DNA from: a virus
DNA length: 12,053 nt
Virus genome (UHGV): UHGV-0297898
Strand: one strand, 5' to 3'
Shown: positions 5,422 to 10,734 of the stretch, in pieces
Numbering within the stretch: the stretch's first letter is position 1
Layout: each line of letters begins with the position of its first letter
Notes under the pieces: model-generated
The model's input: the letters and a program-made list of their open reading frames with translations, nothing else
Told to the model about the DNA's origin: nothing
Databases searched by the model: none
Made by a program: the position numbers and the translations under genes

Positions 5422-6057
5422 TTAGAAGTTCAGATTTTTCAGTGCATTCAGTGCAGAGCCCACATCCTCAGCGTCGCGCAGGGACAGTGCGCCATAGCCC
5501 CCGGCCATGAATGTCGACCTCTGGGAAGTCAGTCTGGTGACGTTTCCGTCTAACGACGAGGCGCGGATCAGCGACGTCAAGAACGCGCTGGCCCGCGGGG
5601 AAATCCCCGAACAGAAAAAAATCGAAAGAGTCCTGCGTGATGTCGGACTCTCCCGTTCTTTCAGCAGAAAGGCTTCTTTCGTCTGGTCGTATTCCCAGTC
5701 CTTCAGGACGTACCCAATAGAAAGGCCGGTTAACGAACCGGCCTTCATGTGTGCATGTGCGCGTTTTGCCAGAGGATCATCATCAATGAGCAACCGCCCC
5801 CTGACGTAAAGCCCGACATCGTCTTCCTTCATTTCGGTGTAAACACCGATGGGCTCATCCATGCGGTGCTGCCAGAGCAGCGCAGGTAACGCTTTTCTGT
5901 CACTCCACGCCCGCAGGGAAGCAGCAAATGCCCCGGACATCACCACATCATCGTGGCTGTCCTTTACACCAAAGACGGAGCCATACCCTTCAAACTCACC
6001 GGAGTCACTGACAGATTTCAGACTCAGCGGTACATCAAGACGTTGTTTCGTCTGCAT
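5422..6057 (-). CDS. Prohead (head maturation) protease, HK97 family, with C-terminal region disrupted by a local inversion
   Basis: Catalytic-domain sequence …GEFEGYGSVFGVKDSHDDVVMSGAF…ALPALLWQHRMDEPIGVYTEMKEDDVGLYVRG…GLSIGYVLKDWEYDQTKEAFLLKE is typical of the family. Preferred start is ATG at 6057..6055 (AGAAGGA SD 8 nt upstream), not the track's ATG at 6093 which has no SD and overlaps the portal gene by 59 nt. After LLKE the minus-strand frame reads 48 residues of low-complexity sequence (RESPTSRRTLSIFFCSGISPRASAFLTSLIRASSLDGNVTRLTSQRST) before resuming a plausible C-terminus; the expected motif is on the opposite strand (see feature 5512..5656). Confidence 0.7.
   Translation of the reverse strand: MQTKQRLDVPLSLKSVSDSGEFEGYGSVFGVKDSHDDVVMSGAFAASLRAWSDRKALPALLWQHRMDEPIGVYTEMKEDDVGLYVRGRLLIDDDPLAKRAHAHMKAGSLTGLSIGYVLKDWEYDQTKEAFLLKERESPTSRRTLSIFFCSGISPRASAFLTSLIRASSLDGNVTRLTSQRSTFMAGGYGALSLRDAEDVGSALNALKNLNF
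5512..5656 (+). other. Inverted segment inside the protease gene: plus strand encodes the conserved protease C-terminal motif
   Basis: Plus-strand translation across this segment is (N)VDLWEVSLVTFPSNDEARISDVKNALARGEIPEQKKIERVLRDVGLSR, the canonical L.EVSLV..P.N.EA.I C-terminal strand of HK97-family prohead proteases, while all flanking protease sequence is on the minus strand. Re-inverting 5512..5656 (or 5513..5655) gives a continuous minus-strand ORF …AFLLK(D/E)VDLWEVSLVTFPSNDEARISDVK…GLSRFMAGGYGALSLRDAEDV…. Boundaries are approximate to within a few nt. Confidence 0.6.
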
Positions 6058-7276
6058 TGGCGTTATCCTTCTGCTTACCGGCTTTACTGCCATCGGAGGG
6101 TTTCGTGGTCATGTTCATCGGTGTGAGATAGACATCCCCACCGGGACGCGGATTCATATCTTCCAGGTCGCGGCAGTCATTGGGAGAGTAAATTCCCCAG
6201 TTAATCCCGGTGGCGTAGGCTTCAAAACGGGACTTCATATCCCCGCGCAGTAACGCCCCGGCGTTAAATTTGGCGTAATAAACGCCCTGCTTACTTTTTC
6301 GTACCAGTCCGGTGTTGATCCGCTGTTCGATGCGGGTCAGATACGGCACCAGTGAATAGTTGATAAATCCGAGCCCCAGTTCTTCGATATTGTTGAAGGT
6401 GGCGCGATCGGTGTTCTGCACCATGTGCAACGGTACCCGGAACAGACGACAGATTTCTTCAAGCTGAAACTTGCGGGTTTCCAGGAACTGGCTGTCCTCG
6501 GCGTTCAGCGCCATCGACTTCCAGTCCAGCCCCATCTCAAGGATCATCGGGCGGTGAGCATTGCCAAGCCCGGTGTGACGCTCCTCAAAATCTTTCTTCA
6601 GGCGCTCATAAGCCTGATCTGACAGCGTCTGCTCTGTACGCAACACACCCGACGTCACCGCACCATTGCTGAACAGTCTGGCCCCGTGCTCTTCAGTCGC
6701 TGCCGCCAGCGATATTGCCTCGCGGGCATAGGCGACGGGATTCAGCCCCACCAGTCCGTCCAGCGTCAGCGTGCGCACATGCCAGATATCCTCCTGGCTC
6801 AGCACATCCGTGGAGCCGTCCGGGAATGTGACCTGATAGACCGGCTCCCAGCTACTGTTAAGCTTCGGTACCACACAGCCGGGATCGACGGGCAGCAGTT
6901 CAGCCACTTCGCCAAATGCTTTCACTTTGTAGGCGTAAAAGTTTCCCCGCAGGCACAGACAGGTGACCACCAGCTCCCAGAACTCCTGCGGCGTCATATA
7001 GCCATTGGGATGCGTGGAGATCAGCTTATGCAGACGTTCGCCGGTGGCCCTCTGTTTCAGGCTGCCGTTCAGGTGATACAGATTGCAGGGCAACATCCCG
7101 ACCGACTCTGCCAGCACCCTGACGCAGGAAAAAACCGCCGTCAGTCGCATGGCCCGCTGGCTGCTGATCTGCTTTCCGGTATAGGTGTCATATGACAGCC
7201 CGATAGCATCCGCCAGCTCTGCTGGCGTGGTCACCGGCGCGTCACTTTTTCGTTGAAATAATCCCGAAAAGAACAC
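6035..7276 (-). CDS. Portal protein, HK97 family
   Basis: 413-aa ORF. Start is GTG at 7276..7274 with strong GGAGG SD 6 nt upstream; its G overlaps the TAG stop of the upstream small ORF (TAGTG). Length and content (…EEICRLFRVPLHMVQNTDRATF…) fit HK97-type portals; positioned between terminase and protease. Confidence 0.85.
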   Translation of the reverse strand: MFFSGLFQRKSDAPVTTPAELADAIGLSYDTYTGKQISSQRAMRLTAVFSCVRVLAESVGMLPCNLYHLNGSLKQRATGERLHKLISTHPNGYMTPQEFWELVVTCLCLRGNFYAYKVKAFGEVAELLPVDPGCVVPKLNSSWEPVYQVTFPDGSTDVLSQEDIWHVRTLTLDGLVGLNPVAYAREAISLAAATEEHGARLFSNGAVTSGVLRTEQTLSDQAYERLKKDFEERHTGLGNAHRPMILEMGLDWKSMALNAEDSQFLETRKFQLEEICRLFRVPLHMVQNTDRATFNNIEELGLGFINYSLVPYLTRIEQRINTGLVRKSKQGVYYAKFNAGALLRGDMKSRFEAYATGINWGIYSPNDCRDLEDMNPRPGGDVYLTPMNMTTKPSDGSKAGKQKDNANADETTS

Positions 7277-7458
7277 TATTTACCTCCGCCGACAGACGAC
7301 TGTGTACGGTCAAGATATCGCGCCACCAGCCACGACCAGAACAGGCACAACGCCCCGGCAACAACAAACCCCGCCGGGGGATAAATCAGCCAGGCACCAT
7401 ACGCCAGCAAAAGCGCCCCCAGCACGCCCACCAGAGGCGCGAGAATCAGCATGATCAT
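7276..7458 (-). CDS. Small predicted membrane protein (60 aa, two hydrophobic helices)
   Basis: ATG at 7458..7456 with GAGGT SD about 5 nt upstream, 11 nt after the terL stop. Sequence [60 protein letters not shown] is almost entirely hydrophobic. Exactly fills the gap between terL and portal with coupled stop/start. Confidence 0.45.
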
Positions 7459-7469
7459 AATTACCTCAG

Positions 7470-9203
7470 TTAAAGCGAGCGGATCCCATAGGACTCAATG
7501 TGGTCAGACAACGTGTCTTCTTTCTCGTACAGCATGGCTCTGCCAACCGCCATAATCAGCGCAACTGCACCATCGATTTTGTTTTCCGCCTGCTCTTTAA
7601 CGGGCTTCACCACATCATCGTTACCCGGAATGGTTTTGCCGACCACGTTGCCGATACACCAGGTCATGATGGGATTGCCATCATGATGAAAGCGCCCCGA
7701 TTCAATTGCCGCTTCCAGCTCTTTCATCGGGTCGGACATGTTGGTGTAGTTCTGAATGATAGTGATGGGGTTCAGGTCTTCATCAGCAAGGTCATGTGAC
7801 AACCCGGTCGCCCCGAAGGGGTCGATGGGTGACTCACTGACCGGGCTGATTTTGTTCGCCGCTTTGGCCTCCTCGAGGATGTAGCGATAATCCACCTCCG
7901 CACCATCGGTAACGGTCAGAACGCCCATTTCCACCCATTTCTGAAAGCGTTCGGCTGTCCGTCGATCTTCATTTTTCTCGACGCTGTACACCGTGTCATA
8001 CGGTACCCAGAAACGCGGGGCCACACTGTAGTAATGCGTTTTACCGTCAATCTCGCGGGTATAAAGTCGCGCCATGCTGTTCATATCCAGCTTACGCGCC
8101 AGGTCAAAGGCCAGAATGCACGGCTGCCCCTCGAACTGCTCAAGGGTCAGTGATTTATCCTCGCAGCTCTGCCAGCTCACCAGGTTGAAATACGCCGAAC
8201 GCGCCGACACCCAGATATTGAGGTGTTTTGTTTTAAAGACGTTTGCCAGACGGGCGTTATTTTTCGCACGCTGCTGCTGACTTAACAAAAATTCGCGATA
8301 AACCGACACGCCAATATTTGGATTGGCTTTTTCCAGCACCTGCGGGTCGGTCCAGTCGTCACCTTCATCAACGGTATAGATGATCCCGAACAGTTCATCG
8401 TTAGGCACCGAGCCGTTGAGCATCTCGATGACTTCCCGCCGTTTGTCGTAGCACGGCCCCTCAATGTTGTACCCGGCGGTAGTGATAGCCCACATCAGTG
8501 GCTGACGTCGCGCCCCCATCCCGGTAAGCATCGTGGTGTAAAGCGCATCTGTGGCGTGCTCGTGATATTCATCCACCACCGCACAGTGGGGTGATGAACC
8601 ATCACCGGGGTTACAGATCAGCGGTTCAAAACGCGCACCATCCTCCGGACGGTTCATGTTTGAGGCGTTAACCTCAATCCCGAACGCTTCCGTCAGCATG
8701 GGTGTGCGTTTACACATCAGTCTTGCCGGACGAAAGACTTCCCATGCCTGTTTCTCCGTCGTGGCACCGGAATACACTTCCGCGCCGAACTCGTTATCAC
8801 AGGCAAAACAATACAGGGCGACACCGGCAGAGATTGCCGATTTGCCGTTCTTACGGGGGATTTCGGTATACACCTCACGGAAGCGGCGCAGCCGGGAGCC
8901 TTTATTGACCCAGCCAAACGCGCAGCAGATCACAAAGAGCTGCCACGGCTCCAGCGTGATGGGCATCCTCTTAAATGCCCACTCACCCTTGGTGTGCGGC
9001 AACAGCTGAATAAATTTCGCGGCCCGTTCAGCCAGGTCCTTGTCGAAGCGGTAACGAAACGACTTACTTTTTTCCTCCATTAGGTCATCAAGATGGCGCT
9101 GGCAGGCCTGAATCACAAACTGGCAGGCCACAATCTTTCCGCGCACGACATCACGGGCATACTGATTGGCAGCATTTACGTTGGGGTAAGATTTCCGGCT
9201 CAT
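7470..9203 (-). CDS. Terminase large subunit
   Basis: 577-aa ORF, ATG at 9203..9201 overlapping the terS stop (ATGA). Contains Walker A-like PRKNGKS and Walker B-like CAVVDEYHE motifs in the N-terminal ATPase region; followed by the portal gene. Confidence 0.9.
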
Positions 9204-9694
9204 GATTCGATGATTTTCAGAAACGGGTTAGTGGCTTTCTTCTGCCCCGCCAGGCCAATCAGACGCTGGCGGCTGCTGGGGTCGAGTCCGAGCATTGCCC
9301 CCGTACTGCTCATCTCGGACTCCTGTTCTTTTTTGGCGGTCAGCTCCGGATTTTTGACCATACCGCCCATTGCACCGGTGATGGTGTTGCCCTGTCTGGC
9401 AATATTTTTCACGGCACGTCGCCAGAACTCGTAGGCCACGCACCACCGCTCAAGCACCGCGAGGTCAGTCACGCACAGCAGGCCCTGACCGCAGAGTTCT
9501 TTAGTTGTCAGTTGCCACATGATCGTAGCGAGAGGGAGATCTTCTTCAGCGAACCACTCCGGTGGCTCAACACCTTTGATGGGCGTAAAAACAGGTTCAT
9601 CTTTATTCAGGGCTCGCTTGCCGGGGTTTCCGGCCAGCGCCTTGCGCGCCGTTGGCTTGGGGCGACGCCCGGAACGCCCCGCCGTTCCAGCCAT
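9200..9694 (-). CDS. Terminase small subunit (P27-family-like)
   Basis: Preferred start is ATG at 9694..9692 (AGGAG SD 8 nt upstream), giving 164 aa beginning [36 protein letters not shown]. The track's start at 9703 is a GTG that lies inside the SD. Basic N-terminus and position upstream of terL fit terS. Confidence 0.8.
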
Positions 9695-9730
9695 ATGCGG
9701 CACTCCTGGTTAAATTTCATTTTTCGCGGG

Positions 9731-9800
9731 TATAAAAAAACGATGGGGCGGGCAGTCCGGAAGACGTCAGGCCGCAGGGATTTGACCCGCCCCTCCCCTC
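9731..9800. other. Candidate cos / terminase recognition region: A-tract plus GC-rich 8-bp inverted repeat
   Basis: GGGGCGGG (9745-9752) and CCCGCCCC (9786-9793) form an inverted repeat separated by 33 nt that contains a GACGTC palindrome; an A7 tract lies at 9734-9740. Located in the 125-bp HNH-terS intergenic space, where cos sits in HK97-like phages. The start GGGGCGGGCAG loosely resembles GC-rich lambdoid cohesive ends. Placement is positional inference only. Confidence 0.3.
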
Positions 9801-9819
9801 AGGAAGTTGAGAATCATTA

Positions 9820-10170
9820 TCACTTCAACCGTTCACGGGCCGTCTTCGCCTTATGACACGGCCAGCACAGACTCTGCAGATTACAGTCGGCATCAGTGCC
9901 GCCATGCGCTTTAGGGATGATGTGGTCAACGGTTTTCGCTTCACGCACCACACCGGCACGCAGACATAACTGACATAAACCTTTGTCACGTTTCAGTACA
10001 CGTTCACGGATAGCATCCCATTTCGAACCGTAGCCGCGCTGATGACGGGATTGTCCTGGCTTGTATTGCTTCCAGCCTTCGCTTTTGTGGCTTTCGCAGT
10101 AGCCTGACGGGTCAGTAGTGGTATGGCGGCAGCCGCGAACGCGGCAGGATTTTGGGATTCGTGGTGGCAT
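9820..10170 (-). CDS. HNH endonuclease (terminase-associated)
   Basis: 116-aa ORF, ATG at 10170..10168. Cys-rich N-terminus (CRVRGCRH…CESH) and C-terminal HNH motif DHIIPKAHGGTDADCNLQSLCWPCHKAK. Lies immediately upstream of terS, the arrangement of HNH-dependent cos-packaging phages. Confidence 0.85.
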   Translation of the reverse strand: MPPRIPKSCRVRGCRHTTTDPSGYCESHKSEGWKQYKPGQSRHQRGYGSKWDAIRERVLKRDKGLCQLCLRAGVVREAKTVDHIIPKAHGGTDADCNLQSLCWPCHKAKTARERLK

Positions 10171-10195: not shown

Positions 10196-10218
10196 TAAAA
10201 ACCCCATATTGAATGGGG
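10196..10218 (-). terminator. Rho-independent terminator-like hairpin downstream of the moron ORF
   Basis: On the minus strand: CCCCAT-tcaat-ATGGGG followed by TTTTTAT (plus-strand stem 10202-10207 / 10213-10218, A-tract 10196-10201). Sits about 10 nt after the stop of the 168-aa ORF and just upstream of the HNH start. Confidence 0.45.
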
Positions 10219-10227
10219 CTTGATGAA

Positions 10228-10734
10228 TTACTGTCCTAAAGCACTTTTTGCCAATATTGAAGCAATTGAAGCAAACGTCGGATTTTCCAATAGCTTTTGC
10301 CAAAGGCTTTTAACCTCTGGATCATTGCAATGCTCTATAGCATCATGTAGTTGTTGAATGGTTATATTCTTTGTGATCGAATTATCATTACCGGCTTGAA
10401 AATCACCACCAGCATTAATAGCACCGTTAAACGTCAAATGGGTCGTAATCTGCTTCGGCTTCTCTTTTACATCCAATGCCTTCACTATCAATACCGCCAA
10501 ATGTGAGTAGCCAGGGCAACCAACCTCGAGACTAATTTGCACCTCGTAATCAAGCACTTCAAATAGTCTTTCCCTGTCGACCATTTTTTGCACAATGATA
10601 TCGCCGATATTAAATGGGCATAAGTCACTTTCAATAGGAATATACAATCGGCCTTTAGATGAGTCACGTTGACCATAATAGGTGGATGAATTAAAGGTAA
10701 AAGTATCTGGATAGAAAAATTGATCTGGTCTCAT
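10228..10734 (-). CDS. Hypothetical protein (168 aa) encoded in an AT-rich moron island; function unknown
   Basis: ATG at 10734..10732 with weak AAGGGA SD. Protein MRPDQFFYPDTFTFNSSTYYGQRDSSKGRLYIPIESDLCPFNIGDIIVQKMVDRERLFEVLDYEVQ… has no signal peptide or TM segment and no motif I can assign. The gene and its flanks are visibly AT-rich compared with surrounding phage genes, and it has its own promoter-like and terminator elements. Confidence 0.6.
   Translation of the reverse strand: MRPDQFFYPDTFTFNSSTYYGQRDSSKGRLYIPIESDLCPFNIGDIIVQKMVDRERLFEVLDYEVQISLEVGCPGYSHLAVLIVKALDVKEKPKQITTHLTFNGAINAGGDFQAGNDNSITKNITIQQLHDAIEHCNDPEVKSLWQKLLENPTFASIASILAKSALGQ

Follow-up and report, generated by a model that had tools for sequence, protein, structure and literature searches.

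A very probable cos site of the SfV/SfI type in the HNH–terS spacer of an SfV-like Escherichia coli prophage, with a putative TerS box and a conserved upstream G-box

For the Shigella phage SfI, the virion ends have been mapped by run-off reads directed outward from the HNH and terS genes of virion DNA, which were compared with the prophage and revealed "a 10 nucleotide (5'-TGCCCGCCCC-3') gap", i.e., ten bases absent from both reads (PMC3636060). The SfI GenBank record terminates on exactly TGCCCGCCCC, and the record of the Stx2e phage phiP27 annotates CGCCCGCCCC, identical in nine of ten bases, as "cos-site" at the same place. Evidence for SfV and phiP27 is second-hand, comprising GenBank features and the SfI paper; the SfIV paper attributes a common cos site and discrete ends to SfI, SfII, SfIV, and SfV. 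The cos site of this group is thus already known, and ordinary. In HK97, the end is a 10-nt 3' overhang and the TerS site extends from +15 to +29, where one G is read together with an A-tract, the latter through DNA shape (PMC11331095). The HK97 overhang is given as 12 nt 3' in PMC9410871; the 10-nt value fits the alignment with SfI and phiE125 described below. It is also known that the HNH protein gp74 stimulates HK97 cos cleavage (PMC11331095, PMC9410871).

We analyzed a stretch of 12,053 nucleotides from the virus genome UHGV-0297898, hereafter the window, in which all packaging genes and the spacer of interest are located on the minus strand (the gene strand). The gene order is HNH, terS, terL, and portal, with an HNH–cos–terS arrangement as found around HK97 gp74. 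The HNH endonuclease gene (9820–10170; 116 aa; PF01844, E 5e-15) lies at the right end of the genome; its product, an accessory nuclease of packaging, matched PDB chain 5h0m_A (deposited as "HNH endonuclease"; E 2e-11). The P27-family terS gene (9200–9694; 164 aa; PF05119 Terminase_4, E 2e-21) starts with an ATG at 9694 behind the Shine–Dalgarno sequence AGGAG (9703–9707), which agrees with the SfV and SfI annotations, and its product is 99–100% identical to TerS of SfIV and of E. coli phage 689R6. In E. coli genomes with this region, PGAP calls the first of these genes "HNH endonuclease" and the second "phage terminase small subunit P27 family". The HK97-type terL gene (7470–9203; 577 aa; PF03354 and PF20441) encodes a protein that matched the HK97 TerL structure 6z6d_A by phmmer (E 1.4e-24, query residues 112–556), and the portal gene occupies 6035–7276.

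A blastn search of positions 9600–9950 (351 bp) against phage records matched 86 records. Among them were E. coli phages 720R4 and SKA5 (97–98%), and further matches included the Shigella serotype-converting phages SfII, SfI, SfV, and SfIV, Salmonella phage ST64B, and phiP27. Furthermore, the region was present in 1123 of 5426 complete E. coli genomes, nearly always on the chromosome. Genes annotated nearby in E. coli genomes comprise a lysis cassette of the lambdoid kind, protease and capsid genes of the HK97 family, and those of a sheathed tail, and we therefore assign the host element to the SfV-like E. coli prophages.

The spacer of 125 bp (9695–9819) is bounded by the HNH stop codon (9820–9822) and the terS ATG. 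All elements that a sequence-only reading had described lie where that reading placed them. These are the GC-only arms GGGGCGGG (9745–9752) and CCCGCCCC (9786–9793), which form a perfect 8-bp inverted repeat with 33 nt between them, a GACGTC palindrome in this core (9763–9768), and an A7 tract (9734–9740), corresponding to T7 on the gene strand. The hexamer TCCGGA (9756–9761) overlaps the conserved GAC described below. Read on the gene strand, the spacer is ...GAGGGGAGGGGCGGGTCAAATCCCTGCGGCCTGACGTCTTCCGGAC TGCCCGCCCC ATCGTTTTTTTATACCCGCGAAAAATGAAATTTAACCAGGAGTGCCGCAT ATG, with the ten bases that concern us here standing in the context GGAC TGCCCGCCCC ATCG.

These ten bases (9754 to 9745 on the minus strand) are identical to both the SfI gap and the end of the SfI record. 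They conform to the pattern (T/C)GCCCGCCCC that marks the SfV/SfI/phiP27 type in the spacer upstream of terS, with a P27-family terS directly downstream and an HNH gene directly upstream. SfI, SfV, SfII, SfIV, and phiP27 are 89–98% identical to the window over the aligning parts of the 351-bp query, and they share the 10-nt end (CGCCCGCCCC in phiP27), a G-rich box, the T-run, a ACCCGCGAAA box, and the HNH–cos–terS order. Nothing substantive separates the window from the SfI group apart from single bases, e.g., A at +1 where SfI has G, and the window represents the integrated prophage copy, in which cos is uncut. Beyond this group, the records of HK97, phiE125, and EPP-1 close with 10 nt that align without gaps with these ten bases, and the linear records of HK97, phiE125, SfI, and EPP-1 all finish in the same alignment column and restart with (G/A/C)(T/C)... 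We are therefore highly confident that an SfV/SfI-like prophage has its cos site at 9720–9798 (minus strand), with the 10-nt end TGCCCGCCCC, a proposed G-box subsite, and a candidate TerS box, the inverted repeat being incidental. Thus, the claim that this spacer holds cos and the virion termini is borne out by homology to the physically mapped SfI ends, by the phiP27 cos annotation, and by the shared record-end column, and the comparison with related HK97-like cos sites that had been suggested as a check places the cut, without gaps, at the HK97 record end. The cut lies at one repeat arm and not in the 33-nt core; the arm at 9745–9752 (the right arm in gene-strand orientation) sits within the cohesive 10-mer. 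The interval given by the sequence-only reading, 9731–9800, leaves out the greater part of the likely TerS box at 9720–9731.

Since the ten bases are missing from both SfI run-off reads, both 5' ends should be recessed, from which we infer 3' overhangs as in HK97; this is our interpretation of the "gap", as the SfI paper is silent on polarity (PMC3636060). The overhang length of 10 nt is backed by SfI, and the presumed 3' polarity would follow from the SfI gap and from the 3' overhang of HK97. The predicted nicks fall between 9745 and 9744 on the minus strand and between 9754 and 9755 on the plus strand, and 3' overhangs of 10 nt would result. Virion DNA would accordingly carry the HNH gene at its right end and terS at its left end, although this particular prophage could be defective. 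A full-text literature search for the cohesive-end strings returned unrelated papers only.

GenBank record ends in the SfV family are inconsistent with the mapped cohesive end. The SfV record (U82619.2) opens with TCCGGAC..., 7 nt ahead of the 10-mer and 17 nt ahead of the cut as mapped, the SfII record (KC736978.1) begins right after the HNH stop codon, and the ST64B record (AY055382.1) finishes right before terS. Record termini are therefore unreliable evidence of physical ends in this family.

To describe conservation around the cut, we aligned 47 distinct spacers, of which 40 are variants from loci with 99–100% identical TerS, the others being phiP27, a Klebsiella phage, Burkholderia phiBtTUL1a, Pseudomonas VW-6S, Moraxella Mcat31, Psychrobacter Psymv2, and the joined ends of HK97. 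Microvariation was followed in 80 loci with 99–100% identical TerS, and distant relatives were collected by tblastn against phage records. Apart from a single one-base gap in VW-6S, the alignment is ungapped from the G-box to past the cut. On the gene strand, the conserved blocks follow one another as G-box, a variable spacer of fixed length, GAC, the 10-nt C-rich end, a T-rich run, and (A/G)(C/A)CCGCGAAA at +14. Directly 5' of the cohesive end, the A and C of GAC (9755–9757) are invariant in all 47 sequences, HK97 included, and its G occurs in at least 90% of them; the one exception within the alignment is Mcat31, and outside it phi467 and EPP-1 read TAC. The variable spacer (9758–9778) keeps its length and loses its sequence, which differs in phiP27, Klebsiella, and HK97. 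Here, GACGTC is replaced by GCGCGC, GCGCAC, or similar strings even among close relatives with identical TerS, so that the palindrome to which attention had been drawn is not conserved. A T-rich run is found at the T7 position (+5 to +11 after the cut) in all relatives, and T7 may have a role in bending or TerS binding.

The G-box, GGGGAGGGGCGGGTCAAATC (9779–9798, corresponding to −54 to −35 from the gene-strand cut), is ungapped in 47 of 47 aligned sequences and holds the repeat arm at 9786–9793. It is common to HK97-type cos phages of Escherichia/Shigella, Klebsiella, Edwardsiella, Pseudomonas (D3, VW-6S), Burkholderia, Moraxella, and Psychrobacter. The distance between the end of its G-run and the cut is 40–42 nt in six lineages (window, SfI, EPP-1, D3, HK97, and phiE125), which is about four helical turns. 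We propose that the G-box is a second conserved cos subsite, in a position like that of lambda cosQ, and it could be the HK97-type counterpart of cosQ with a function in termination or second-strand nicking. A literature search for a cosQ-like site in HK97 returned only citations to lambda work.

The block downstream of the cut behaves differently from the G-box. At +14 to +25, the window carries the candidate, cosB-like TerS box ACCCGCGAAAAA (9720–9731), and a near-identical box recurs at the same offset in phiP27, the Klebsiella phage, phiE125/phiBtTUL1a, VW-6S, Mcat31, and EPP-1, with TerS identities down to 46–51%. Thus phiE125, whose TerS is 51% identical, retains GCCCGCGAAATT at this offset, whereas phi467 and 733R5, whose TerS is only 24% identical, have the unrelated box CGCCGCAGGTTNGAAAACTTTTTTTT at the same position. 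In these two phages, HNH is 73% identical, the G-box is retained despite the different terS, and the core, (T/G)AC-CGCCGCC, is similar. In this comparison, the downstream box follows terS, and the G-box and the cut site do not. ACCCGCGAAAAA is hence the likeliest TerS site, putative as it is. The window TerS showed no detectable similarity to HK97 gp1 (BLASTP E 7.1) and no match in the PDB at E ≤ 1, though HK97 small-terminase structures have been published; the TerS site can therefore not be transferred by homology, and the analogy with HK97 concerns position only. Since the G-box is independent of the terS family, its reader would be TerL, the HNH protein, or the portal–motor complex. That it is a distinct, essential, and previously undescribed cos subsite read by one of these, with the +14 to +25 box being swapped together with terS as the determinant of TerS specificity, is a tentative idea that we regard as rather doubtful. 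A limited literature search found no prior description of either the G-box or the terS-linked box, and the wide conservation of the G-box is the sole point that is possibly undescribed. The 8-mer TCGCGGGT within the TerS box (9723–9730) also occurs beside lambda cosN (lambda 12–19), in the opposite orientation relative to the small-terminase gene; this is probably a chance match (estimated at about 1 in 10) and was dropped.

How much meaning the inverted repeat itself carries was judged by shuffling the spacer 2000 times with its dinucleotide content preserved. Inverted repeats of at least 8 bp without a mismatch arose in 10.9% of the shuffled sequences and a GC-only version in 0.4%, and the repeat taken alone is therefore only mildly unusual; the weight lies instead in each arm falling into its own, separately conserved block. 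The rarity of the GC-only version would agree with arms that are inverted copies of one protein-binding motif, at which a dimeric terminase or HNH complex loops out the 33-bp core. Both arms are kept perfectly in phiP27, and every lineage has a G-rich upstream block and a C-rich cohesive end, as such a motif would predict. Pairing between the arms, however, is not maintained. Seven close relatives, in which the TerS protein is at least 99% identical, have the arm GGGGGAGG opposite an essentially unchanged CCCGCCCC (CTCGCCCC in one of the seven), which leaves 5–6 of 8 pairs, and in HK97, Psymv2, Mcat31, VW-6S, Burkholderia, and Klebsiella only 3–4 of 8 positions form Watson–Crick pairs. No compensatory changes between the arms were found among the relatives compared, and the covariation score of the arms (0.059, against a shuffled mean of 0.055) was reached by 137 of 500 shuffles. 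Moreover, the conserved G-box reaches past its arm, with GGGGA upstream and TCAAA downstream, and the cohesive end has no mirror image of these extensions. A looping two-arm motif is hence improbable, and the inverted repeat, which had been put forward as part of the signal, is incidental: a C-rich cohesive end and a G-rich box that happen to be complementary in this lineage.

The same two arms could instead form a GC stem which, together with the T-run, acts where the HNH/lysis transcript ends, as an intrinsic terminator or a regulatory RNA hairpin, in place of or besides a packaging signal. On the gene strand, GGGGCGGG...CCCGCCCC is indeed followed by T7 after 4 nt, the minimum-free-energy fold pairs both arms, and the SfIV paper mentions predicted rho-independent terminators somewhere in the SfIV genome. 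The loop of such a hairpin would, however, measure 33 nt and its U-run would be offset by 4 nt, while an intrinsic terminator has a stable short-loop GC hairpin with an immediate U-run that is kept in relatives; here, the GGGGGAGG relatives and the distant relatives that lack the pairing still have the T-run. The folded region was no more stable than shuffled sequence (RNA z −0.27, DNA z −0.58), the terminator scan did not call the cos repeat, and Rfam gave no match. Lambdoid late transcription must, in addition, run from the lysis genes into the head genes, which counts against a terminator at this position. With scan, folding, covariation, and Rfam all negative, the possibility that the element simply acts as a transcription terminator, which had been named as a refutation of cos, is very improbable. 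A hairpin between the 168-aa ORF upstream and the HNH gene (10199–10221, minus strand; AAGCCCCATTCAATATGGGGTTT followed by TTATGC) is the better candidate terminator. Headful (pac) packaging, with the spacer being merely intergenic, has nothing specific in its favor and is the least probable of these alternatives and hardly conceivable: TerL is of the HK97 type, the HNH–terS–terL arrangement is typical of cos phages, and phages with matching TerS and cos sequences are shown or reported to have discrete ends.

With the spacer read as a cos site, its relation to HK97 can be specified. HK97 shares with the window a homologous TerL, an HNH gene at the right end (gp74 in the HK97 record) and terS at the left, and a cos that aligns with an equivalent cut, and it has an ungapped G-run followed by (A)TCAAATC, GAC, the 10-nt C-rich end CGCCGCCAAA, an AT-rich stretch, and ACCCG. 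In HK97, ACCCG is situated 4 nt farther from the cut and is followed by T7 instead of GCGAAAAA, the distance from the HNH stop codon to the cut is 319 bp as compared to 75 bp in the window, and the two arms are not complementary. As the window TerS has no detectable similarity to HK97 gp1, the window is filed under the P27-terS branch and is not an HK97 cos in the strict sense. Two further phages, which differ from the window in host and tail type, show how far the blocks extend. Burkholderia phage phiE125 reads CGCCCGCTTC and then GTCGAATTTTCACGCCCGCGAAATT. Its record finishes 42 nt beyond the G-run and that of Pseudomonas phage D3 40 nt beyond it, at or near the shared alignment position, while the predicted cut in the window lies at 41 nt. 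D3 has an identical GGGGCGGGTCAAA G-box, while its end, …GACACCGCGCCCCCA, and the downstream region differ; its TerS is shorter (127 aa by annotated coordinates). The 13-mer GGGGCGGGTCAAA at the D3 right end is identical to window positions 9781–9793 within otherwise unrelated surroundings.

The resemblance to lambda is of another kind. The lambda site (cosQ–cosN–cosB) likewise has a staggered cut beside the small-terminase gene, a terminase-binding region downstream, a further element upstream, and a GC-rich end. Its overhang, GGGCGGCGACCT, is however a 12-nt 5' extension as compared to a presumed 10-nt 3' extension in the window, it has no HNH partner, and its G-rich strand has the opposite orientation relative to terS, reading away from terS in the window. 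Pfam searches of the window terminases at E ≤ 0.001 returned only Terminase_4 and TerL_ATPase/TerL_nuclease models. These are, to our knowledge, not families of lambda Nu1 and gpA. With terminases presumably outside the Nu1/gpA families, and with a cohesive block of 10 nt in place of a 12-nt 5' overhang, the window is not a member of the lambda family, and lambda cos is an analogue. The earlier suggestion that GGGGCGGGCAG resembles lambdoid cohesive ends is nearly right insofar as the cohesive end reads GGGGCGGGCA on its complementary strand; the likeness to lambda GGGCGGCGACCT is compositional only.

Taken together with what is known from SfI and HK97, these blocks would fit the following course of events. 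During lytic growth, the concatemer would be cut at this cos. TerS would bind to a site directly downstream of the cut, for which the T7 tract together with the ACCCGCGAAAAA box (about +5 to +25) is the most likely candidate, and would position TerL. TerL and the HNH protein would then place one nick in each strand, flanking TGCCCGCCCC with a stagger of 10 nt, and generate virion DNA with complementary 10-nt 3' overhangs. The G-box, 40–42 bp upstream, would serve as a terS-independent subsite, probably in cleavage or termination.

The main use of this assignment lies in annotation, as it sets the virion ends for a prophage type present in about one-fifth of complete E. coli genomes. PGAP leaves the virion ends of SfV-like prophages unmarked, and several GenBank records (SfV, SfII, and ST64B) are not linearized at their true ends. 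In addition, the three-part map of an HK97/P27-type cos, comprising the G-box, GAC with the 10-nt end, and a terS-specific box, could guide cos-plasmid or transduction experiments as well as structural work on HK97. The cos element described here is not new in kind, with the G-box and the terS-linked box as minor additional observations.

Regarding the surroundings of the site, a 168-aa ORF (10228–10734, minus strand) lies between the Rz/Rz1 lysis genes and HNH; PGAP names it hypothetical (WP_021519683.1), and it had no Pfam match. Between terL and portal, a 60-aa ORF (7276–7458, minus strand) corresponds to PGAP "protein YmfR", which ties the module to the packaging region of the e14-type prophage. 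In the 80 loci with 99–100% identical TerS, the spacer is nearly invariant from TTCCGGAC to the ATG (9695–9757), whereas its HNH-proximal part (9758–9822) occurs in several unrelated versions, beginning with TGATAAT..., TAAGAACCAG..., or GAGAATTAATGTCATC... This difference between the two sides places a boundary of recombination or mosaicism beside the HNH gene, at the cut or a short way upstream of it.
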